Shown piece by piece: positions 2,082 to 48,207 of a DNA stretch of 64,000 bases (position 1 is its first letter; each line of letters begins with the position of its first letter). The stretch is from assembly GCA_963753395.1 (NCBI GenBank), contig CAVWBW010000012.1, forward strand, positions 516,513 to 580,512. The letters are read 5' to 3'. The position numbers and the translations under genes are program-made. The notes beneath the pieces are model-generated. The model searched no databases and was not told the origin of the DNA. It was given only the letters and a program-made list of their open reading frames with translations. This DNA is from an uncultured delta proteobacterium (GTDB taxonomy: Bacteria > Myxococcota_A > Polyangia > Polyangiales > Houyiibacteriaceae).

Positions 2082-2717
2082 ATGAGCGTTCAACCAATTG
2101 AGTTCCTTCAAGATACATTTCCCCAGTTGTTCACCCGGGGGGTCGAGGTCCTGAGGACCCGCGCCGCCGGTGGAGATGAGCAGGCCCAGCGCATTCTGGA
2201 CGACGTGACCGCCGTCACGGGCGCAGCCAGCCTCCAGATCGACGAAAGCCCGCCCGTGGTTCTGTCGGCCGCAAAAGGCGCGATGAGCGCCGGAGAAGCT
2301 CCCGGGGACGGCGTTCCGGTCAAAATCGCGGCCGCGCTCCCGTCCGATGCAGTGGCGCTTCTTCTCGGCGAGGCGCTCAAAGCAGGGGCCCTCGAGAATG
2401 ACGAGGTGGCTGTGGGAGCTGCCCAAACCGCCTCGAAGCGCTTTGAGGACGCGCTCGCAGGCAGGCCCATGACCTGTCACGTCACGCTCCGCGGGGTCCC
2501 GGACCTGGGCGACGTCACGGTTCGCTTGGGCTTCAACGTCTCGGAGCCGCCCAGCGAGCCCGGTTTCACGACGGAGCTCCAATACGGGGACCTCGAGAGC
2601 GTGCAACGCGGGGAGCTCACGGCCCAGGAGCTGTTCCTGGGGGGCAAGCTCAAGATGGAGGGCGACTACTCACTCGCCCTTCAAATCGCGATGCAGCTTC
2701 TTACGAACCCCCTCTGA
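2082..2717 (+). CDS. SCP2 sterol-binding domain protein
   Basis: ORF 1911..2717. The internal ATG at 2082 ([17 protein letters not shown]) avoids overlap with the divergent gene. The C-terminus [29 protein letters not shown] is a typical SCP2 tail. Confidence 0.7.
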
Positions 2718-2806: not shown

Positions 2807-4339
2807 ATGTTTCGGGCAATTGCCAAGAGTCGCTATCTCGTTCCTGGCTTTTTGTGCTTCGCGCTCGCGTTCGTCGTCGGGCCGGTCGGCACAGCGTCGG
2901 GTCTTCTCGCGGGTGCTGAGGCAGCGGCCGTTGCTGGGGTTGCGGCAGCAGTGCTCGGCGTCCTCGGCTTGCTGATCATTGCATCCGGGCTCCCTCCGTC
3001 GATCGAGGTCGATGAGGTGGATGCCCAGATCCGCCGGATCTACGGAGAGGTCGAAAGCGTCGAGACTGCGATCGGCGACAACGTCCGTGCTCTCTCGAGC
3101 GGGCTCGGCGAGCAGATGGTGGCCGTCGAGGAGACCGCCCGCGCCCTCAAGTCGATGGCGATCTCGCTCCAGGCGATCAGCGACCGGGTCGAGGCGCTCT
3201 CCTCGAGCACTGAGGAGAGCTCTTCGAGCATCCTCCAGATGACGGCGACGAACCAAGAGGTCGCGGAAAACATGTCCAACCTCGGGTCGAGCGTTCGCGA
3301 GACGGCTTCGTCGATCGAGGAGATGACCTACAGCATCAAGGAGGTCGCGCGGAACGTCGATGCGTTGGCGCTGACCGCTGAAGAGACTTCGTCTTCGATG
3401 AATGAGATGGATGTGTCGATCGATCAGGTCCAGTCGAACGCAAACGAAACCGCACGGCTCTCCGAGGAGGTGGCGGCCGACGCGGAAACGGGCGCGGACT
3501 CGATTCTAAAGATCATCGACGAAATCAACCGTATCAAATCGTCGTCACTCGAGGCGGTGAGCACCATTTCGAACCTCGGTGATCGCATCGAAGCGATCGG
3601 CGACATCCTAAACGTCATCGACGACGTCGCGGAGCAGACCAATCTCCTCGCTCTGAACGCGGCCATCATCGCTGCGCAGGCTGGCGAGCACGGCAAGGGC
3701 TTTGCGGTCGTGGCCGACGAGATCAAGGACCTGGCCGAGCGGGCGGGTGCTTCGACCAAGGAGATCGCCGAGCTCATCAAGACGATTCAAGAAGAAACCA
3801 AGAACGCGATCGTCGCGGTCGAGCGGGGCGCCAGCACGGTTGACCGCGGTGTGACGGTGTCAGCCGAAGCGGAGCACGCGCTCAAGAAGATCCTAGCGTC
3901 CTCGAAGCAGTCGACCGCTATGGTGCGCGGCATCGCGCGTGCAACCGTCGAGCAGGCGAAGGGATCGCGGCAGGTGACCGACGCGATCGGGCGCATCGCG
4001 GAAACCGTACAGCAGATTGCGGCGGCGACTGCCGAGCAGGCACGCGGCTCGGAGCTCATCATGAAGAGCGCAGACAACATGCGGCTCATTACGCAGCAGA
4101 TGGAGCGCAGCAGCCAGGAGCAAGCCGAAGGCGGACGCCAGATGACGGGAGCGATCGAAAGCATCTCGGACATGGTGCATCAGCTGCACGGGTCGCACCG
4201 CAAGCACTCCGAGAGCTCGGAGCAGACCCTGGCGGCAGCCAACCGCATCCAGCAGTTGACGCGCGAATACGAGCGCAGGGTGAGGGCGATGAACGAGGCT
4301 GTCGAGCGCTTGCGCGCTCTGCGATCTACGGGTTCGTAG
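2807..4339 (+). CDS. Methyl-accepting chemotaxis protein
   Basis: ORF 2756..4339. It has an N-terminal TM region (alternative start at 2756). The highly conserved MCP signalling hairpin is present: [49 protein letters not shown]. Confidence 0.85.
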
Positions 4340-4429
4340 GCGCCCCGTGAGCGCCCTCTGCGGGTCTTCCGGCGTCGGAGGTGCTTGCCGGTTGGCCTCC
4401 GTGACAGGCACGATTCATGGTAGGAGCGC

Positions 4430-4825
4430 ATGTTCGGAATCGGACCCACTGAGCTAGCTTTTTTCCTCGTCATCGTTCTCCTGGCGGTGGGCCCGGATCG
4501 CTTGCCCACGTTCATGCGGACCGTGGGGAAAGGCGTGCGCCAGGTTCGAAACGCCAGCCGCGAGTTCAAAGACGCGATCGGGCTCGACGAGCTGATGCGC
4601 GAGGGCGATCCTTTCCGCTCGCCGCCAGTCCGCCCACCACGAGCCCGCCCGGTGCCGGTGCAGGAAAAGCAAGAGCAGGACCCGAAAGCTCCGGACACGA
4701 AGACGACTCCTCCGCCCACACCTGAAGCGGCGAAGGTCGCGGGCGAGGGGACGCCCGCTACCGAGGCCGATGAAGCGCAGTCCGCGGCGGAGACGGACAC
4801 CTCCGCCGAAGCAAAGCATCAATGA
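4430..4825 (+). CDS. tatB: Twin-arginine translocase subunit, TatA/B family, TatB-like
   Basis: MFGIGPTELAFFLVIVLLAVGPDRLPTFMRTVGKGVRQVRNASREFK has the TM helix, GPxRLP hinge and amphipathic helix of TatB. The tail is acidic and Pro-rich. The SD sequence GGAG lies upstream of the ATG. The stop overlaps the tatC start (ATGA). Confidence 0.7.
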   Translation: MFGIGPTELAFFLVIVLLAVGPDRLPTFMRTVGKGVRQVRNASREFKDAIGLDELMREGDPFRSPPVRPPRARPVPVQEKQEQDPKAPDTKTTPPPTPEAAKVAGEGTPATEADEAQSAAETDTSAEAKHQ

Positions 4826-5622
4826 CCTCGGATCCAACCGAGCTTCCGGCGCCCGAGCCCTCACGGATTCCTGAGCAAGATCAGGAGATGACGTTCTTCG
4901 AGCATCTCAACGAGCTCCGGCGCCGCCTGCTGCGTGCGCTCCTCGGCTTGGTCCCCGCCGTCGCAGTGGGCTGGATCTTCAAGAAGGAGATCAAAGACTT
5001 CCTCGTCGCACCGCTTCAGCCGGCGTGGGAGCGCTTGAACCTGCCTGGCGAAGCCGTACTTCGGTTCGCCGGCCCGGCGGACGCGTTCATGATGTACATG
5101 AAGAACTCACTCATCGCGGGCGTCTTGCTCGCGTCGCCTTGGATCTTCTGGCAGCTCTGGATATTCATCGCGCCGGGCCTCTACAAGAAGGAGAAGGCGC
5201 TCGCGATCCCGTTCATCTTCTTTTCGACCTTGTGTTTCGCCGGCGGCGCCATCTTTGGGTACAAGCTCGTCTTTCCGGAAGCATTCACCGTCTTGCTCGG
5301 GTTTAGCGACGAAACGCTAGTCGCCACGCTCTTCGTGAAGGACTACATGCCGTTCTTCCGGAGGATGCTTCTCGCATTCGGCATCGTGTTCGAAGTGCCG
5401 GTGATCGTGACGTTTCTCGCGGGCGCCGGGATCGTCACTTGGCAACAACTCCTCAGGTTCTCGCGATGGTGGATCGTGTGCGCGGCGTTCATCTCGATGC
5501 TGCTTACCCCGCAGGACGTCTACACCATGATCATGATGCTGATCCCGCTCGTAGTTCTCTACTTCGTCGGCGTCTTCTTCGCCTACCTGATCAGCGTCTT
5601 CGGGAAAAAGTCGGACGTCTAG
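4822..5622 (+). CDS. tatC: Twin-arginine translocase subunit TatC
   Basis: MTFFEHLNELRRRLLRALL, six predicted TM segments and a length of 266 aa. It is translationally coupled to tatB. Confidence 0.9.
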   Translation: MTSDPTELPAPEPSRIPEQDQEMTFFEHLNELRRRLLRALLGLVPAVAVGWIFKKEIKDFLVAPLQPAWERLNLPGEAVLRFAGPADAFMMYMKNSLIAGVLLASPWIFWQLWIFIAPGLYKKEKALAIPFIFFSTLCFAGGAIFGYKLVFPEAFTVLLGFSDETLVATLFVKDYMPFFRRMLLAFGIVFEVPVIVTFLAGAGIVTWQQLLRFSRWWIVCAAFISMLLTPQDVYTMIMMLIPLVVLYFVGVFFAYLISVFGKKSDV

Positions 5623-6449
5623 CCGCGTTCGGGCACGGGGTAGGGCGGGTACTTCGGCAGATCCTCCGGGAGGAACCACTGCTCGCCCCAGATGCTGGCG
5701 CCGCCGTCTATGTAAAAGGTCTGACCGGCGATGAAGTCGGCGTATCGCGAGGCGAGATACGTGATCAGGTGCGAAACTTCCTCAGCTGTACCAAGCCGCT
5801 TGAGCGGGTTGCTCTTCTCGGCGTTGTCGAGCAGCTCGGGTGGGTACTGCTTCGTGCCGCTGGTCACGATCACTCCGGGCGCCACCGCGTTGACGCGAAT
5901 TCCGTGCAGGGCCCACTCGACGGCGAGCGTCTTGGTCATGTTGTCGACTCCCGCACGGGCCGCGCCAGTGTGCACCATTCCAGGGAACCCTCGGATGATC
6001 TGCGCGATCACGTTGACGATGCGACCACGCTTCTGTGGGATCATTGCCTTGGTCGCGACCGCGTGGGTCATGCTCCAGGTGCCGACCAGGTTGTTGCGAA
6101 CCACAGCAGCAAAGCCCTTGGGTGACAGCGCCTCGGCTGTCGTAGGAAACTGCCCGCCCGCGTTGTTGATCAGGACGTCGATGCGTCCGAACCGCTCGAG
6201 CACCGAGTCGACGAAGATAGCGATCGCGTCTGGTTCCCGGATGTCGCAGGGTGCGCCAAACGCTTCGACGCCCTTCGCCTCGAGCTCCGCGACCGCTGCT
6301 TTCAATGGGTCGGGGCGTCTCCCACAGATCGCGACCTTCGCTCCGAGCAGGCCCATCTCGGTCGCGGAGACGAGGCCGATCCCGGTTCCGCCGCCCGTGA
6401 TCAGAACTACTTCGTCCTTGAACAACCCATCGGCAAACAGCTGATCCAT
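5619..6449 (-). CDS. SDR-family oxidoreductase (dienoyl-/enoyl-CoA reductase-like)
   Basis: Has the TGGGTGIG dinucleotide-binding motif and NNAG. The length (276 aa) and overall pattern fit DECR/PECR-like SDRs. Confidence 0.85.
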   Translation of the reverse strand: MDQLFADGLFKDEVVLITGGGTGIGLVSATEMGLLGAKVAICGRRPDPLKAAVAELEAKGVEAFGAPCDIREPDAIAIFVDSVLERFGRIDVLINNAGGQFPTTAEALSPKGFAAVVRNNLVGTWSMTHAVATKAMIPQKRGRIVNVIAQIIRGFPGMVHTGAARAGVDNMTKTLAVEWALHGIRVNAVAPGVIVTSGTKQYPPELLDNAEKSNPLKRLGTAEEVSHLITYLASRYADFIAGQTFYIDGGASIWGEQWFLPEDLPKYPPYPVPERG

Positions 6450-12312: not shown

Positions 12313-14499
12313 TCAGCCCGCCCGGAGCGAGTGCCGCAACAGCGCCCCAACGGCTGACTCGACCCGGGGCACTTCTTCGCCTAGCGCTTCGATGAGGGTC
12401 CGGACTTCCGCCATGTCCTGGTGGTCTTCGATTGCCCCGAGAAGGGTGCCCGCCCTAGTCGCGCCGATCTGCTTGCTCGCGCCCTTCATCGAATGCGCAA
12501 GTGAGCGAACCTCCGCGGTGTCGTTGGCTGCAGCCGCGGTCCCAAGCTTCTGAGCCACGTCCTTGAGCTGGTCGACGTAGCTGCCCATCACCTCGCGAAT
12601 GAAGTCGTCGTCTTCTCCATCGAGTGACGCCAAGCGGCGAACCATGTCCAGGTCCAGTGCGGAAGGTGGTGGCAAGCTCGACACGGGCCGCATCGATCGC
12701 TCGTTGTTGATCGGGACCCAGCGCTCGATTGTCTTCGCGAGCATCGATGTGCGTACAGGCTTGCTGAGCGTGTCGTTCATGCCCGATTCGAGGCAGCGCG
12801 CCCGGTCGCCTTCTGCGACGCTGGCCGTGAGCGCGATGATCGGAAGGTCTCTTCTTTCCTCCGAGCGCCGAATGCGTTCCGTCGCCTGGAAGCCGTCCAT
12901 GAGCGGCATGTAGCAATCCATGAACACGATGTCGTAGACGTTGGCGCGCGCTTTCTGGAGAGCATCGCGGCCGTCGATGGCGATGTCGACCTCGCACGAG
13001 AGCTTCTTCAACAAGGCCTCGGTGACCATTCGACTGGTAGGGTTGTCTTCCGCGAGGAGGACGCGGGCTCCGTCGCGAATATAGAGATCGCCCTTGCCGT
13101 CCGGGTCCTCGACGCGCAGTGTATCGTCCGGTCCCGGTTCGAGCTCGATCTCCGCCCAGAACGTGGTCCCGACGCCTACCTGGCTCTCGACTCCAATCTC
13201 GCCACCCATCAGCTCGACCAGCTCCTTGCTGATCGCCAGACCGAGCCCGGCGCCTACGGCGCTCCGTTCCGCGTCTTCCCGATTCTGCCGGTAGCGCGCG
13301 AACACCTGGCTGATCATCGTGTCCGGAATGCCAGTCCCCGTGTCCCGGACGGAAAAGCGTACCTTCGCTTTTTCGCCGGACGGAAGCATCTCGGCGGTCA
13401 GTCGAATGGTTCCGGAGTCGGTGAACTTGATCGCGTTGCCCACGAAGTTGAGCAACACCTGGCGGACGCGCCCAGCGTCACCCTCGAAGCGGCGCGCAGT
13501 GAAGCCCTTCATCCCGGTGTCCAGATTGAGGCCCTTGACCGCTGCCCGCGGCTGCATCAGCGCCGCGACGCTATCGAGCAGCGCGCTGATGTCGAATGCG
13601 CCGCGCTCGAGCTCGATCTGCCCCTTTCGAAGTTGCGCAAAGTCGAGGACCTCGTCCACGATCTCAACCAGCGCGTCGGCCGACTCGCGAATCGCGCTGA
13701 CCATCTTCTTCTGCTTCTCGTCGAGGTTCGTGTCGAGCAGGAGGCCGCTCAGCCCGAGCACGCCGTTCATCGGCGTACGCACCTCGTGGCTCATGTCTGC
13801 CATCATTTCCGTCTTGGCTGCAGAGGTTCGCTCTGCGGCAAGCCGAAGCTCTTCCATGTATACGCGAGTCCGGTTGCGCACGAAGTTGAGCCCAAGGGCG
13901 ACGGCCGAGAAGCCGGGCAAGTAGCCGAGGCACCGCATCCAGCTGACATCGTCCACCCAAATCGACGTGATCCCCCACGCAAGGTCGCCGAGCAGCATGA
14001 TTGCGATGAGCCACTTTCGGCTGTGAACCACTGCCCCGGCGGCGAACTGGATCAGCACGTAGAAGTAGAAGACCGACGGATCTTTGCTAAGCGCGTAACC
14101 CGCCGTCACGGTTGTCGTGATGATCAAGAACAGGACGCCGCCAATGTGAACCGACCACATCACCGGTGGCGCCTGGGAGTGGGCGCGCCATGCGAACGCG
14201 AGCATGGATACGCCGGTGAGCCCGTAGAGCGTCAGCAACCCGAGCCGCACCTGATCCAAGTGAGTCGACAGCTGACCAATGCAAAGGCCGAGGTAGGCGA
14301 TGCCCGCGCAAAGGAACATCGTGACGATGTGTCGAGCGGTTACCGCATTGACGAGCGTCCAACGCTCCTCACGAGTCAGCGGAACGTGAGCGGCAAGCGT
14401 CTCTTTGGAAGGGCCGAACCCTGCCTTCCACAACGAATGTGCCCTCCTCGACTCGTCCCCCATCCCCTTCAGTGTATCGGGCGGTGCCGGGGCTTTCAC
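12313..14499 (-). CDS. Hybrid sensor histidine kinase/response regulator with C-terminal HPt domain
   Basis: Multi-TM N-terminus, H-box MADMSHEVRTPMNGVLG and an HATPase_c domain. It also has a receiver (VLLAEDNPTSR...IVFMDCYMPLMDG) and an HPt domain (AHSMKGASKQIGA). Its GTG start overlaps the upstream stop (GTGA). Confidence 0.9.
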   Translation of the reverse strand: MKAPAPPDTLKGMGDESRRAHSLWKAGFGPSKETLAAHVPLTREERWTLVNAVTARHIVTMFLCAGIAYLGLCIGQLSTHLDQVRLGLLTLYGLTGVSMLAFAWRAHSQAPPVMWSVHIGGVLFLIITTTVTAGYALSKDPSVFYFYVLIQFAAGAVVHSRKWLIAIMLLGDLAWGITSIWVDDVSWMRCLGYLPGFSAVALGLNFVRNRTRVYMEELRLAAERTSAAKTEMMADMSHEVRTPMNGVLGLSGLLLDTNLDEKQKKMVSAIRESADALVEIVDEVLDFAQLRKGQIELERGAFDISALLDSVAALMQPRAAVKGLNLDTGMKGFTARRFEGDAGRVRQVLLNFVGNAIKFTDSGTIRLTAEMLPSGEKAKVRFSVRDTGTGIPDTMISQVFARYRQNREDAERSAVGAGLGLAISKELVELMGGEIGVESQVGVGTTFWAEIELEPGPDDTLRVEDPDGKGDLYIRDGARVLLAEDNPTSRMVTEALLKKLSCEVDIAIDGRDALQKARANVYDIVFMDCYMPLMDGFQATERIRRSEERRDLPIIALTASVAEGDRARCLESGMNDTLSKPVRTSMLAKTIERWVPINNERSMRPVSSLPPPSALDLDMVRRLASLDGEDDDFIREVMGSYVDQLKDVAQKLGTAAAANDTAEVRSLAHSMKGASKQIGATRAGTLLGAIEDHQDMAEVRTLIEALGEEVPRVESAVGALLRHSLRAG

Positions 14500-44173: not shown

Positions 44174-44370
44174 GAGGCGGTACCACGTCCCGTCAAGTCG
44201 GTGCCATTTCTCGCCCGCCCGGCTGACGATGCGGCCCCGGTTTCACCCGGGCGGCCTAGGATGGCAAATATCTGAAATTGTTGTAACTTTTGGAAAAACA
44301 TCACGACGGCGGCACCGAGCGGGGTTAAAAAACCCCCACCGGACGGGTCAACTGGGTTAGCGTAGCGCGC

Positions 44371-45012
44371 ATGCCGGGTGGCTTTCTAATCGTCGAGGAC
44401 GAGCCGACATTGGCTCGCACCCTCGCTCGTACATTTGGGCGTCATGGTCCAGTTGAGGTCGTTCACAGCATGGCCGCAGCGCGTGAGCAGCTCCAGACTC
44501 ACGAAGAGTGGACCGGGGTGGTGCTCGACCTGATTCTCCCCGATGGGTACGGGCTCGATCTGCTTTCGGAGATCCGCCAGGCCCACGGCGGCTTGCCCGT
44601 GCTCGTGCTGACGGGCGAGCTCAATCGTGATGTAGTTAACAAAGTTCAGACCATGCGGGGCGAGTACGTGTGCAAGCCCGCATCTGCGGACAATCTCAAC
44701 CCGTTCATCCAACGGGCGTTGGCGCAGGAGCGCGTCGACGACGCCGCCATTGGCCAGCGGATCGAGCACCTCGCCCGCCAGCTCAAGCTAACCCGCCGCG
44801 AAACCGAGCTTCTGACGCTGTCGGTAGACGGTCTCTCCCGCAAGGAGCTTGCCGACTCGCTCGGCGTTGCGGAGAACACGGTAAAGGCCCAGATCCGCTC
44901 GCTCCTCAAGAAGAGTGGCGCTCGGAGTCTTGCCACACTGGCCCAGAAGGTGATCAAGGGCGCAACCCGGGACTCGGTCCCACCCGAAGAGGCCCCTGCG
45001 GCTAACGACTGA
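44371..45012 (+). CDS. Response regulator, NarL/FixJ type (receiver plus LuxR HTH)
   Basis: FLIVEDEPTLARTL...VVLDLILPDGYGLDLL, then LTRRETELLTLSVDGLSRKELADSLGVAENTVKAQIRSLLKK. Confidence 0.88.
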   Translation: MPGGFLIVEDEPTLARTLARTFGRHGPVEVVHSMAAAREQLQTHEEWTGVVLDLILPDGYGLDLLSEIRQAHGGLPVLVLTGELNRDVVNKVQTMRGEYVCKPASADNLNPFIQRALAQERVDDAAIGQRIEHLARQLKLTRRETELLTLSVDGLSRKELADSLGVAENTVKAQIRSLLKKSGARSLATLAQKVIKGATRDSVPPEEAPAAND

Positions 45013-45892
45013 GGCTCGCCGCCGCGATTTCGAGGTCTTGTTGGATCTCGACCCGGCTTCCCGAGGCAACGGACGCCGCACGTCCGCCGGCCAGAATCTT
45101 CACATGCTCGGGGACCTCACTCTCGATCGCGGCGATCTCGGCTCGCGAGGCTTTCTCGCTTAGGTTGGTCACGGAGAGCAGCAAGAGCTCGGCCTTGCTG
45201 TCGCGCACGGCGTACGCGATCTCCGCGGCCGGCAGGTTCGGCCCGAGGTAGAGCACGCTCCACCCGTGCATCGCGGCGAGCATCGCGACCATCAACGCGC
45301 CGAGCTCGTGGTCCTCTTTGGCAGGCGTCGCGACGACGACTCGCCGTCTCGAGTCGTTGGAGGGGTAGAGCCGCATCAATGAAAAGAGCAAACCCCGCAT
45401 GACGGCGGAGCAGGCGTGCTCGTGCGCGATACGGAGGTCGCCGTTCTCCCAGCGCTCGCCGACCTCGACTAGGATCGGCGCCACGATTGCTTTGAGAAAC
45501 TCGACGGGCTCGACGCTCAACGCCGCGCGCGAGAGCAGTTGCTCGGCCTCTTCGACGCGCAGCCGCTCGACCGCAGCCATCACGCGTTGACGCACTTCGG
45601 GGAGGAGCTTCGATGCTGACTGTTGAGCCGAGGGCGCCGGGAAGGCGGCTGCCATGTGGCGGAGATCGAGGTCAGAGAGCTTGGCGATGCCACCGATCGA
45701 GTGGCCGCTGTCGACGAGAGTGTGCAGCAGCCGTAGGCGGGCAACGTGGGCATCGGTATAGAGGCGCCCGCCCGCTTCCGTCCGCTGCGGCAGTACGGCG
45801 GCATAGCGCTTCTCCCACATTCGCAGGGTGTGCGTGGAGAGGCCGGTCATCTTCGCGACCATGCCCACTCTGTACTTTGCTTCGTCCGCCAC
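45002..45892 (-). CDS. CarH/LitR-type MerR-family regulator with B12-binding domain (putative AdoCbl photoreceptor repressor)
   Basis: MerR HTH (YRVGMVAKMTGLSTHTLRMWEKRY). Helical-bundle motif W-x9-EH (GERWENGDLRIAHEH). Rossmann B12 motif ExHxxG (KEDHELG). The start is placed at GTG 45892. The ORF-track start at 46057 would run through low-GC promoter-like DNA and the predicted operator. Confidence 0.82.
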   Translation of the reverse strand: MADEAKYRVGMVAKMTGLSTHTLRMWEKRYAAVLPQRTEAGGRLYTDAHVARLRLLHTLVDSGHSIGGIAKLSDLDLRHMAAAFPAPSAQQSASKLLPEVRQRVMAAVERLRVEEAEQLLSRAALSVEPVEFLKAIVAPILVEVGERWENGDLRIAHEHACSAVMRGLLFSLMRLYPSNDSRRRVVVATPAKEDHELGALMVAMLAAMHGWSVLYLGPNLPAAEIAYAVRDSKAELLLLSVTNLSEKASRAEIAAIESEVPEHVKILAGGRAASVASGSRVEIQQDLEIAAASLSR

Positions 45893-46009
45893 GAACCTCT
45901 CGGGGCCAAGATAAACAGAATGCGATGCCCAGACGCTGTCTAAGAGCTGTCTATCCTTAGAGATCTCGCCAATCAAGCCCCAATTGGGAAAAAAAGAGGC
46001 GACCGGCGG

Positions 46010-46068
46010 TTGACGTGTCCAATCGAGACTGTAGGAACTTGGACAAGACCTAGACATAACTTAGACAG
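46010..46068 (+). promoter_or_regulatory. Putative promoter plus CarH-type operator (three tandem 11-bp direct repeats) upstream of the DUF4397 gene
   Basis: TTGACG (46010-46015), a 16-nt spacer, then TAGGAA (46032-37). DR1 is AACTTGGACAA (46036-46), DR2 is GACCTAGACAT (46047-57) and DR3 is AACTTAGACAG (46058-68). All three fit nAnnTnnACAn. They are followed by GGAGGAGG and the ATG at 46084. Confidence 0.5.
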
Positions 46069-46083
46069 GTCGGAGGAGGATTA

Positions 46084-46944
46084 ATGAAAAATCGTAAGCA
46101 TTTCTGGTTGGGAATCGTAGCTGCGGCAGCTCTTGCCGCGACAGGCTGCGGAGACAGTGACAACAACGGCACCGGGGGCAGCGGCGGTACCGCTGGCACG
46201 GGCGGCTCAGCCGGCGAAGGCGGCGTAGGCGGCATGCCGATGGGGATGGCCAACGTGACGGCGGTTCACCTGGCACCCGAGGTTCCCTCGGCGGAAAGCA
46301 CCGCAGTTGCGCTTTTCGTCAATGGCGCGGAGGCGACCGATCTCGGCACGCTCTCGTACTCGCAGAGCACCGGCAAGATCCCGCTTCCCGCGGGCACATA
46401 TGACATCGGCATCGGCCTGCCCGGCGGCGACGCCCCGCTGCTCCAGCTCGACGACGTCGCGCTGAGCGACGGAGACGACGTGGTCGCGGTCGCCTTCCGA
46501 ACCAATGGTGCACTTCCCGTCGACTTGTTCGTGTTCGTCAACAGCACGGAGGACCTCGCCAGTGGTGAAGGCCGCGTGTTCGTCGGCCACGGCGCGGACG
46601 ACTCGGCGCTCGATCCGGTCGACGTCTCGCTTGGTGAAGCGCCGGACTGCTCCACGCTCGTTCCGAACTTCGTCTTCGGCACGACCGTTCCCGAAGAAGG
46701 CGTTCTCGATCTTCCGGAGGGCACCTATCAGATCGGCTTTGACCTCTCACCTGAGGACGACAACGACTGCGCCGACTTCGGTCCCGTAGCTGTTCCCGTG
46801 ACCCCGGGCGTCGTGAGCATTCTCATCGCGGTCGACGAGGACACGACCGACAGCGCGGACGGCGGCGCCCTCAATCCCGAGCTCTGGGCGATCATTCCAG
46901 ATGCCGAGAACCCGCAGCCCATTCGCACGATCCAGACCAACTGA
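46084..46944 (+). CDS. DUF4397-domain lipoprotein
   Basis: MKNRKHFWLGIVAAAALAATGC (lipobox), then a Gly-rich linker. Two DUF4397-like modules follow (VTAVHLAPEVP...ALFVNGAEA...LSYSQSTGKIPLPAGTYDIGIG...VVAVAF). A strong SD is present. Confidence 0.72.
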   Translation: MKNRKHFWLGIVAAAALAATGCGDSDNNGTGGSGGTAGTGGSAGEGGVGGMPMGMANVTAVHLAPEVPSAESTAVALFVNGAEATDLGTLSYSQSTGKIPLPAGTYDIGIGLPGGDAPLLQLDDVALSDGDDVVAVAFRTNGALPVDLFVFVNSTEDLASGEGRVFVGHGADDSALDPVDVSLGEAPDCSTLVPNFVFGTTVPEEGVLDLPEGTYQIGFDLSPEDDNDCADFGPVAVPVTPGVVSILIAVDEDTTDSADGGALNPELWAIIPDAENPQPIRTIQTN

Positions 46945-46983
46945 CCCATCCCCTTTACTCAACAAGGCATCGTGCATAGCGCA

Positions 46984-47022
46984 GGGGCCGCTCTTCTTCT
47001 GAAGAGCGGCCCCATTCTTTTT
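46984..47022 (+). terminator. Rho-independent terminator
   Basis: A perfect 13-bp stem GGGGCCGCTCTTC (46984-96) / GAAGAGCGGCCCC (47001-13) with loop TTCT. It is followed by ATTCTTTTT. Confidence 0.85.
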
Positions 47023-47053
47023 GGCGAAGTCCCGTGGTAGGACGGCGAGCACG

Positions 47054-47614
47054 GTGTTCAGAACGTGTTCAACTCGGATCCTATCGCTCTTGACGCCCCT
47101 CGCGCTGCTTGCGGCCGCCTGTACCGGTGATGCAGAAGCGCCCGCTCCGGTCGAGCCGCCGATCGCGCCGCGCAAGGTGGCTGATCCCTACGAGCACTCG
47201 GCCTCACGGTTCGGCGTCGTTCCGCTGCACGCGGGGTTCAGCCCGGACCCACGCGTAGTCGCGGGCGAGGCGGTCGGCGAGATTCCCGCCAAGTCGGTGC
47301 ACCGCAAGTGCAGAGGCTGGATCTCGGAAACCCCCGATTACCTGCTCGCCGCAGACACAGCGTTCTTTCAGCTCTACGTGCTCGCTCGCTCGCGCTCCGA
47401 TTCGCTTCTCGTCGTTCGCAAGCCCGACGGCTCGGTGCATTGCAACGACAATCGCCGGGGCACGAAGGACCCGATGATCCGTACTGGCCTTCCGATCGGC
47501 ACGAGCCAGGTGTGGGTGGGCGTTCAGGACGAAGGTGCCCGCGCATCTTACCGGCTCGGCTTCTCCGAGGTGAAATGGAAGTCGTCGTCGATCCCGCTGC
47601 CCGACTCGGGTTAG
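47054..47614 (+). CDS. Hypothetical lipoprotein
   Basis: ORF 47021..47614. The TTG at 47021 lies inside the terminator T-tract, so GTG 47054 is preferred. The signal reads ILSLLTPLALLAAAC. No recognised family. Confidence 0.5.
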   Translation: MFRTCSTRILSLLTPLALLAAACTGDAEAPAPVEPPIAPRKVADPYEHSASRFGVVPLHAGFSPDPRVVAGEAVGEIPAKSVHRKCRGWISETPDYLLAADTAFFQLYVLARSRSDSLLVVRKPDGSVHCNDNRRGTKDPMIRTGLPIGTSQVWVGVQDEGARASYRLGFSEVKWKSSSIPLPDSG

Positions 47615-48207
47615 GACTCACGCCGTTTCCACAGGGCGAGACGCTCTCTGCCCTCGCGCCCCGGGTGAGAGCGCTCCGCTCGACGGACCTCGACCTCATC
47701 GAACGCTCCCTCGACGAAGGTCCGCACGAGCTCGGTATTGATCGGCCAGGGTGGGCCCTCGCGATCGGAGATCGGGTCCTCGAACGGAAAGACCAAGGTG
47801 GCGAGTATTCCCGCTGGCTTGATCAGTCGGGCCATCGTGTCGGCCCAGGTGCTCCGCTGAGCGGGGTCCAACGCGCAGAAGAACGTGTAGTCCCAAATGA
47901 AGTCGAACCCGTCACCCGCTTCGTACGAGAAAAAGTCCGCGATTTCGTAGGTCACGGTCCCCGGAAGATCGGGATGTGCGGTCGTGAACGCATCGCGCGC
48001 CTGTTCGGACAGATCGATGCCAACCACTTCGCGATCCGCGCGGGCGAGGGTCGCGACGTCATACCCGGTGCCGCAGCCGGGAACCAAGATACGACCGGCG
48101 GGCACGCGTTCGGCGCGAATGAGCTCGACGAGTGCGGGTGGTGACCCTCCTGCATCCCACGGGGTCCTCCCCGCTTTCCACGCTTGCTGCCAGTCGACTG
48201 GGGCCAT
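47611..48207 (-). CDS. SAM-dependent methyltransferase, thiopurine/thiol/halide methyltransferase (TPMT) family
   Basis: WQQAWKAGRTPWDAGGSPPALVELI..., VPGCGTGYDVATLA and FDFIWDYTFFCAL. Length 198 aa. Confidence 0.78.
   Translation of the reverse strand: MAPVDWQQAWKAGRTPWDAGGSPPALVELIRAERVPAGRILVPGCGTGYDVATLARADREVVGIDLSEQARDAFTTAHPDLPGTVTYEIADFFSYEAGDGFDFIWDYTFFCALDPAQRSTWADTMARLIKPAGILATLVFPFEDPISDREGPPWPINTELVRTFVEGAFDEVEVRRAERSHPGREGRERLALWKRRES

Follow-up and report, generated by a model that had tools for sequence, protein, structure and literature searches.

A predicted CarH-type photoreceptor repressor and its putative operators beside a DUF4397 lipoprotein gene in an uncultured Polyangiales bacterium

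The regulator, the lipoprotein and the region between them

We analyzed a DNA stretch of 64,000 nucleotides from an uncultured delta proteobacterium of the order Polyangiales (GenBank assembly GCA_963753395.1, contig CAVWBW010000012.1, positions 516,513 to 580,512), hereafter referred to as the window, which is part of a 1.3-Mb metagenome contig (ENA ERZ25039603 contig_2509) and whose closest relatives are metagenome-assembled genomes (MAGs) labelled Polyangiales, Myxococcales or Sandaracinaceae. Two divergent genes of this window are the subject of the analysis: a carH-like regulator gene on the minus strand (45002-45892, 296 aa) and a DUF4397 lipoprotein gene on the plus strand (46084-46944, 286 aa), separated by an intergenic region of 191 bp (45893-46083). 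An earlier reading of the letters alone, referred to below as the original prediction, had proposed that the regulator is a light-sensing, B12-dependent repressor of the CarH type and that it controls the lipoprotein gene instead of carotenoid genes.

The open reading frame of the regulator begins with a GTG codon at 45892, and a GAGAGG Shine-Dalgarno (SD) sequence lies 4-9 nt upstream of it. The recorded gene call for the contig starts at an ATG at 46057, within the operator of the DUF4397 gene described below, and adds the span 45893-46057 on the minus strand to give a protein of 351 aa. Because the lengths of the carH homologues (295-296 aa) and their starts (an equivalent start codon, followed by the N-terminus M-A-D-E-A-K-Y-R) agree with the shorter form, the comparison of sequences indicates that the GTG at 45892 is the true start and that the 351-aa form is an over-extension through the operator.

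The assignment of a MerR DNA-binding domain and a B12-binding module to this protein was confirmed by Pfam, which recognized, in the 296-aa protein, a MerR-type winged-helix domain (MerR_1, E 8.4e-19; residues 7-72, 45677-45874), a four-helix-bundle domain (B12-binding_2, E 1e-12; residues 101-169, 45386-45592) and a Rossmann-type domain (B12-binding, E 6.5e-11; residues 184-276, 45065-45343), all on the minus strand. The recognition helix carries the motif RMWEKRY (residues 24-30, 45803-45823, minus strand), which differs by one conservative R-to-K change from the motif RxWERRY published for CarH and CarA (PMC9304148). The motif Wx9EH is represented by WENGDLRIAHEH (residues 148-159, 45416-45451, minus strand), inside the B12-binding_2 domain, and the lower-ligand motif by EDHELG (residues 193-198, 45299-45316, minus strand), inside the Rossmann-type domain. 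Wx9EH caps the 5'-deoxyadenosyl group of the cofactor. A sequence search of the PDB gave the Thermus thermophilus CarH/LitR structures 5c8d and 3whp as the two best matches over the full length (E ~2e-24), and in the alignment WENGDLRIAHEH lies over AWHRGEIGVAEEH (W131-x9-E141-H142) and EDHELG over ERHEIG, so that both signatures named in the original prediction stand opposite their Thermus counterparts. The top NCBIfam match was likewise a CarH model, the equivalog NF052513 "TransRegCarH" (full length, E 3.5e-34).

The conservation of these motifs was tallied in the best 120 homologues of the window's CarH. Wx9EH was found in 120 of 120 and RxWEKRY in 119; the form [ED]xHxxG was present in all 119 homologues in which it was tallied, E.HELG in 118 and the exact EDHELG in 96. 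These tallies do not point to a MerR/B12 clade lacking Wx9EH conservation, a placement that had been considered beforehand. An intact Wx9EH together with the B12 motif is the criterion by which CarH is separated from the B12-independent CarA (PMC9304148).

The intergenic region has, as had been noted, a lower GC content than its surroundings (0.485, versus ~0.64-0.68 in the flanks). On the DUF4397 side it contains three tandem 11-bp direct repeats (DR1 to DR3), AACTTGGACAA, GACCTAGACAT and AACTTAGACAG (46036-46068, plus strand), each of which fits nAnnTnnACAn. This consensus, as given in the original prediction, proved to be the published one for the sequence that a single CarH DNA-binding domain contacts (PMC8156234); a looser form, nnnnTnnACAn, has also been given (PMC9304148). 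The threefold pattern nAnnTnnACAn occurs only once on both strands of the 64 kb and in none of 100 dinucleotide shuffles. The site of the original prediction was thus found, and a second three-repeat site, over the predicted promoter of carH, had been missed: AGGATAGACAG, CTCTTAGACAG and CGTCTGGGCAT in carH orientation (45925-45957, minus strand), arranged as two direct repeats and a pseudorepeat, with an exact TAGACA-N5-TAGACA and a third core TnnGCA. When three TnnACA cores were searched with at most one mismatch, the carH-side site was the sole additional match in the window (0.02 expected by chance), and no further operator copies were detected in the 64 kb at up to two mismatches; both sites thus lie within the carH/DUF4397 intergenic region.

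The predicted DUF4397 promoter (46010-46037, plus strand), proposed on conservation, consists of a -35 element TTGACG (46010-46015), a 16-nt spacer and a -10 element TAGGAA (46032-46037). The DUF4397-side operator overlaps the end of this -10 element, the expected start site and most of the ~40-nt 5' untranslated region (5' UTR), reaching to the Shine-Dalgarno sequence GGAGGAGG (46072-46079, plus strand; 4 nt ahead of the ATG), whose GGAGGA is kept in related loci. The predicted carH promoter (45948-45976, minus strand) has a -35 element TTGATT (45976 to 45971), a 17-nt spacer and a -10 element TAGACA (45953 to 45948), the latter falling within the first repeat of the carH-side operator. The transcription start sites of both are predicted from the positions of these elements. 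Taken together, five sequence-level criteria, namely the MerR domain with its helix motif, the B12 module, Wx9EH, the lower-ligand His and a tandem 11-bp operator over the promoter, make CarH-family membership well supported.

The product of the divergent gene has a signal peptide, a lipobox (MKNRKHFWLGIVAAAALAATG-C22, with Cys22 encoded at 46147-46149), a Gly-rich linker and two beta-sandwich DUF4397 repeats. Its family assignment held in Pfam (PF14344; 47 bits versus a cutoff of 30.6, E 4.6e-12), and the repeats, which begin VTAVHLAPEVP and VFVGHGADD, show the signature h-h-H-h-[AS]-P...VD. M1, G21, C22, H62, H169 and G170 are invariant in 36 homologues and two Cys residues are nearly so; the invariance of Gly21-Cys22 agrees with the lipoprotein call, in which acylation is a prediction only. 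An AlphaFold2 model is all-beta (mean pLDDT 81, pTM 0.74), with residues 1-34 disordered. Its best Foldseek match in the PDB was the extracellular domain of PepT1/PepT2 (5a9i; E 8e-6, target-normalised TM 0.64), followed by adhesin- and pilin-type beta-sandwiches. The PepT ectodomain (5A9I, 5A9D) likewise consists of two tandem Ig-like beta-sandwich lobes, whereas the bacterial protein stands alone and is predicted to be lipid-anchored, and at 10-14% identity the resemblance is one of fold only, with no function to transfer. The model therefore suggests a binding or scaffold protein, the fold giving no functional clue; among the matches listed for the term DUF4397 in the literature, no paper gave a function. 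The gene is followed by the intrinsic terminator that had been predicted (46984-47023, plus strand), with a hairpin at 46984-47013 made of a 13-pair stem (10 GC) and a 4-nt loop and with a T-rich tail, and because of this strong terminator the DUF4397 transcript is presumably monocistronic.

Conservation of the operators and of the gene pair

The intergenic regions of 22 related genome loci were aligned with that of the window, one near-duplicate was dropped, and the identity of each segment to the window sequence was determined over the remaining 21. The carH 5' UTR (21%), the spacer between the DUF4397 -35 and -10 elements (30%) and the spacers in general (30-56%) are poorly conserved. The promoter proposed for the DUF4397 gene is present with conserved hexamers (90% for the -35 and 67% for the -10 element), the -35 element of carH reaches 78%, and an ATCAAGC island, whose reverse complement contains TTGAT, stands at 78% versus 42-56% in the adjoining spacers. 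The Shine-Dalgarno region shows 81% identity, DR1 and DR2 of the carH-side site 76%, and DR1, DR2 and DR3 of the DUF4397-side site 74%, 97% and 96%, respectively, the values of DR2 and DR3 standing against 21-42% for spacers, and the three-repeat operator is thus the most conserved non-coding sequence of the region.

Over all fetched loci, 71 DUF4397-side sites were collected, corresponding to 48 distinct 33-mers. Among these 48, the A at position 2 of each repeat is kept in 44-48, the T at position 5 in all 48 and the first two bases of ACA in 47-48; the final A of ACA is found in 46 (DR1), 45 (DR2) and 32 (DR3), with a G in DR3 in the other 16. In ~400 kb of related loci the three-repeat pattern was found at the two homologous positions and at one other (L003, position 3244; the loci are denoted by L and a number). 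The near-invariant 22-bp core GACCTAGACATAACTTAGACAG constitutes a ready-made, high-specificity operator candidate.

The linkage of the two genes was followed from either side. The carH-anchored set comprised 38 loci with relatives of at least 66% identity, and the upstream sequence was readable in 35. A divergent DUF4397 gene with the operator was present in 22 of the 35, a truncated DUF4397 remnant in two (L031 and L035, upstream of position 6001), and both gene and operator were absent from 11. Nine of these 11 (L005, L009, L010, L013, L016, L018, L020, L032 and L047) have near-identical upstream sequences and, where enough flank is present, share the synteny of the window, which comprises EAL, FHA-T2SSE ATPase, LuxR-type response regulator, carH, a 197-aa lipoprotein, TPMT, IMPase and trehalose-P genes. 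Since they keep this synteny and upstream sequence, the comparison indicates an otherwise stable neighbourhood in which the DUF4397 cassette is an indel. The carH-side site is retained in all nine, often with a perfect TGAACA in the third repeat; it thus travels with carH even where DUF4397 is missing, which fits autoregulation. L035, which belongs to the same MAG as L010, has an operator truncated after DR2 and a carH copy whose match extends over two different reading frames; this module may be a decaying second copy or an assembly error.

From the other side, in the set anchored on DUF4397, the operator was found ~45 nt ahead of the start codon in 47 metagenome loci. The neighbour is a divergent CarH orthologue in 27 of them, another MerR-B12 regulator in eight, and no regulator within 1.6-3.5 kb in four, where penicillin amidase, TPR and lectin-type proteins are among the neighbours; the remaining eight contigs are too short. 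The adjacency of carH-like and DUF4397 genes in other genomes, which had been named as a check, was therefore recovered in both sets. As judged from these arrangements, the operator and the DUF4397 gene form a portable cassette for which adjacency to carH is common and not obligatory. In some genomes (loci L006, L008, L012 and L017; proteins P0190, P0198-P0201) a double DUF4397 protein of ~490 aa, fused or in tandem, is encoded behind the same operator. L055 encodes a more distant DUF4397 homologue (37% identity) that has neither a carH neighbour nor the 11-bp repeat operator; the 430-bp region upstream of it holds three exact 18-bp tandem copies of CGGACTGTGTCTGCATCG (2150-2215).

At least four gene contexts that are unrelated to one another retain the carH-DUF4397 pair. 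L026, L002, L053 and L027, whose CarH proteins are 73-78% identical to that of the window, lack all of the window's neighbours. In the two of these that were scanned, L026 and L053, carH is followed by genes for a class II cyclobutane pyrimidine dimer photolyase (TIGR00591, E 8e-108) and a CrtD-like desaturase (E 2e-54), with CMAS, DUF2141, SDR and acyltransferase genes nearby. In L026 (6895-9953, minus strand), and also in L002, the photolyase and desaturase genes are convergent with a 78%-identical carH that retains its divergent DUF4397 cassette; no repeat site was detected at the upstream end of these genes in L026 within the fetched DNA. In L030 (6913-12871), a 70%-identical carH orthologue adjoins a DUF1295-CMAS-DUF1365-amine oxidase-CMAS operon, which has its own TTGAC-plus-repeat site upstream (TTGACTGACATAGACAGAATATGTACA, minus strand from 12239, with a TGGACA core a few bases on), and a second MerR/CarH-like gene lies at 12419-12871. 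In another context, L048 (4466-6867), a CarH relative of 48% identity with Wx9QH instead of Wx9EH is divergent from a gene for a 466-aa DUF4397 lipoprotein that is an internal duplication, and the region between them contains single TAGACA or TATACA cores and no clear three-repeat site. The more distant CarH homologues of Verrucomicrobiota and Krumholzibacteriota (L038-L046, 32-40% identity) have no DUF4397 neighbour, and the link between carH and DUF4397 thus appears to be clade-specific.

The other MerR-B12 regulator found beside the operator, which we named Reg2, is a protein of 314 aa with MerR_1, B12-binding_2 (weak) and B12-binding domains, ~30% identical to the window's CarH; its motifs are RAWERRY, W-x9-ER in place of Wx9EH, and QLHEFG. 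Reg2 genes were located at L050 2894-3838 and L065 990-1934 (both minus strand) and also in L063, L064, L068, L076, L079, L088, L091, L092, L099, L111 and L113. They are divergent from DUF4397 genes that have the same three-repeat operator (for instance TGGACAAGACCTAGACATGACTTAGACA in L065), and no repeat site was found on the side of Reg2 itself in these loci. The DUF4397 protein of the window is 65-74% identical to Reg2-linked copies and ~40% identical to some CarH-linked ones, and this closeness suggests that cassettes and regulators have been reshuffled. Directly downstream of Reg2 in L050 is a gene for a 455-aa protein with three fasciclin domains (1271-2638), a pair also seen in L088; the sequence TCGACAGAACTTAGACA ahead of it (2677-2704, minus strand) comprises two 11-bp-spaced repeats and a pseudorepeat, so the fasciclin-domain gene may be a further target. 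In L068, a MobA/VirD2-type relaxase with a TraI middle domain is encoded ~650 bp downstream of the Reg2-DUF4397 cassette (3724-5187, plus strand), which hints that some copies of the cassette are on or near mobile DNA.

Proposed regulation and alternative explanations

We consider it likely, from the sequence features and by analogy with characterized relatives, that the regulator is an adenosylcobalamin (AdoCbl)-dependent photoreceptor repressor of the CarH family which, with two of its operators in the divergent promoter region, represses both the lipoprotein gene and carH in the dark. If it works as the CarH proteins of Thermus and Bacillus do, the AdoCbl-loaded protein would oligomerise in the dark and place one DNA-binding domain on each 11-bp direct repeat. 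An oligomer on 46036-46068 would cover the -10 end, start site and 5' UTR of the DUF4397 gene, and one on 45925-45957 the -10 element and start site of carH, so that both promoters would be shut. Light from the near-UV to the green would break the Co-C bond, the oligomer would dissociate and free the DNA, and the lipoprotein and more CarH would be produced. By the same analogy, AdoCbl binding, the oligomeric state, repeat occupancy and light sensitivity are expected of the protein and are stated here as such.

Much of this arrangement has a known counterpart. T. thermophilus CarH (LitR; PDB 5C8D/5C8E/5C8F, 3WHP) has the same three-domain architecture with aligned Wx9EH and ExHxxG motifs, an operator of three tandem 11-bp direct repeats (nAnnTnnACAn) over a promoter, and a divergent target; unlike here, that neighbouring target is crtB, the helix motif is RQWERRY and not RMWEKRY, and the second operator at the regulator's own promoter is a feature of the window, the two proteins matching only distantly (89 bits). 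The CarH proteins of myxobacteria (Myxococcus, Cystobacter, Sorangium cellulosum, Haliangium ochraceum; PMC9304148) belong to the same phylum and meet the same family criteria, and in Sorangiineae CarH often has two operators of direct repeats and pseudorepeats that control divergent promoters (PMC9304148); their operators control carotenoid genes, whereas the target predicted here is a non-carotenoid gene conserved in many genomes. Bacillus megaterium CarH (PMC9304148) is also an AdoCbl-dependent repressor, as is proposed here, with tandem 11-bp repeats able to overlap the -10 and -35 elements, although it has four repeats in place of three, carotenoid targets and a different oligomeric behaviour. 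Finally, the relatives of carH in L026, L053 and L030 lie in clusters like the LitR/CarH photoprotection clusters (photolyase; amine oxidase-DUF1365-CFA synthase-DUF1295, CFA standing for cyclopropane fatty acid), whereas none of these genes is among the scanned genes of the window, which has the lipoprotein cassette only.

Some observations weigh against the proposed regulation. The match to NF052513 scores 118 bits, far under the equivalog cutoff of 400 bits; such a cutoff marks close orthologues of the seed proteins, and missing it therefore disfavours close orthology to the seeds, not membership of the family. The residue that follows the Trp of the Wx9EH motif is Glu (W-E-N) and not the His of T. 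thermophilus CarH, where it is the upper ligand and forms a bis-His adduct after photolysis; many CarH homologues carry this His, not all (PMC9304148). A strict sigma-70 scan of 44300-47700 called no promoter: TAGGAA and TAGACA are both weak as -10 hexamers, and the first of them, that of the DUF4397 promoter, lacks the T at position 6, which accounts for its not being called. As the strict scan calls neither, both promoter predictions rest on conservation. The DUF4397-side operator sits downstream of the -35 element, on the -10, +1 and 5' UTR, whereas the Thermus operator covers the -35. The conservation of DR2 and DR3 goes far past what the published consensus requires, and their sequence may therefore be under some additional constraint. 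The same operator adjoins Reg2, or no regulator at all within the distance given above, in other loci, and for this reason adjacency alone does not prove which protein binds. Moreover, all relatives are uncultured MAGs or metagenome contigs, and the case is built on sequences.

A first alternative, which we regard as unlikely, is that the module senses B12 status and not light. Repression would then prevail in AdoCbl-replete cells and expression in B12-starved ones, the lipoprotein would serve corrinoid capture or handling, and light would be incidental or act additionally by destroying the cofactor. CarH-type repressors need AdoCbl for DNA binding, so that scarcity would derepress in the same way as light (PMC9304148); the fold of the target is of a binding type, as expected at the surface or in the periplasm, and shows no catalytic signature, and no light-related gene is among the scanned genes of the window. 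The contexts of the relatives point the other way, since their cassette occurs with photolyase, CrtD-like desaturase and CFA synthase genes, which are classic light-response genes, and no B12 transport or synthesis gene stands beside the cassette in any context examined. No cobalamin riboswitch, and no Rfam match at all, was obtained in the whole window, and in the PDB fold search the DUF4397 protein was unlike known B12 binders.

About as improbable is the explanation that the repeats are bound mainly by another protein, Reg2 being the obvious candidate, so that the lipoprotein gene would not be under the direct control of the adjacent CarH. The eight operator-bearing loci with Reg2 instead of CarH, the four with no nearby regulator and the closeness of the window's DUF4397 to Reg2-linked copies speak for it, whereas CarH orthologues remain the commonest neighbour (27 of 47) and CarH loci carry a second site of the same type at the regulator's own promoter, which Reg2 loci lack. 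The repeats are exactly of the type experimentally established for CarH proteins (PMC9304148, PMC8156234), and no Reg2 gene is among the scanned genes of the window. Both proteins could also share the operator, as the paralogous repressors CarA and CarH do in Myxococcus (PMC9304148).

It is very improbable that the regulator is a CarA-like, B12-independent or otherwise light-insensitive repressor that has kept only the domain architecture, as the low equivalog score and the missing His could be taken to mean. CarA lacks the Trp and the flanking residues of Wx9EH, whereas the protein described here has this motif and the lower-ligand His intact, neither of which varies in its family, and CarA has been reported only in Cystobacterineae (PMC9304148); because Wx9EH is intact, we did not assign the protein to CarA. 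The least credible proposal, that the conserved stretch 46044-46080 is an RNA element of the 5' UTR (a GACCU...AGGUC hairpin by the Shine-Dalgarno sequence, with a drawable 5-bp stem and with the conservation of DR2 and DR3 beyond the DNA consensus in its favour) and not a DNA operator, was rejected, because the folding energy of 46044-46100 (-5.8 kcal/mol, z = -0.19) is no better than that of shuffled sequences and the stem is broken in L036, L008 and L014, which keep the 11-bp TnnACA phase; additionally, it has no Rfam match and the same repeats occur in opposite orientation upstream of carH.

Under the preferred reading, repression by CarH relieved by light, the claim that the repressor serves the lipoprotein "instead of" carotenoid genes stands in part. 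As had been stated, no carotenoid or photolyase gene, and no CFA gene either, was detected among the Pfam-scanned genes across the 64-kb window. Beyond these 64 kb the claim is unproven: only this part of the 1.3-Mb contig was visible, so the same repressor may control carotenoid genes elsewhere, and in relatives the module does lie beside photolyase and CrtD-like desaturase genes. As a working guess, the lipoprotein is an envelope-anchored protein of tandem Ig-like beta-sandwiches with a light-induced envelope or photoprotection function, a guess founded on the location of the relatives' cassette in photolyase, carotenoid-desaturase and cyclopropane-fatty-acid-synthase clusters.

CarH/LitR photoreceptors are widely reused as optogenetic parts and, to our knowledge, have been studied almost entirely through carotenoid genes. 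The regulator and the operator architecture described here are of a kind already known; it is the target that is new, as had been supposed, and no paper in the literature collection searched mentions CarH together with DUF4397. The locus offers a predicted direct CarH target outside the pigment and repair genes, and the operator predicted for it is backed by comparative data of a strength unusual for such predictions (71 sites in several genomic contexts). DUF4397 is a large uncharacterised family, and for one of its members the locus provides a concrete and testable condition of expression, light and B12. A possible role of carH is also suggested for those myxobacteria, such as Sandaracinus amylolyticus and Labilithrix luteola, in which the gene is not linked to the crt genes and its targets were left unidentified (PMC9304148).

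A broader proposal can be made only tentatively, and we would sooner doubt it than rely on it: in uncultured, abundant sediment Polyangiales, the main conserved output of B12 photoreceptors may be not carotenogenesis but a portable promoter-operator-DUF4397 cassette served both by CarH (Wx9EH) and by a previously undescribed Wx9ER family. If true, there would be an envelope-level response to light, or to light plus B12, and it could imply a second regulator with altered cobalamin chemistry on the same operator, like the CarA/CarH pair of Myxococcus. The features that most deserve further study are the portable cassette and the Wx9ER regulator family.

Neighbouring genes of the window

Downstream of carH, a gene for a LuxR-type response regulator (44371-45012, plus strand) is convergent with it, the 3' ends of the two genes overlapping by 11 bp. 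This response regulator is 88-96% identical across relatives, much above the 66-87% of CarH. It was considered as a binder of the operator and rejected, because it is absent from the other contexts in which the operator is kept.

On the other side of the cassette, a gene at 47021-47614 (plus strand) encodes a predicted lipoprotein of 197 aa (LLAAAC) with no match in Pfam or NCBIfam. It is present in all loci with the synteny of the window, and in those that lack DUF4397 it lies next to carH in divergent orientation, with a conserved TTGACC-N17-TACCAA upstream.

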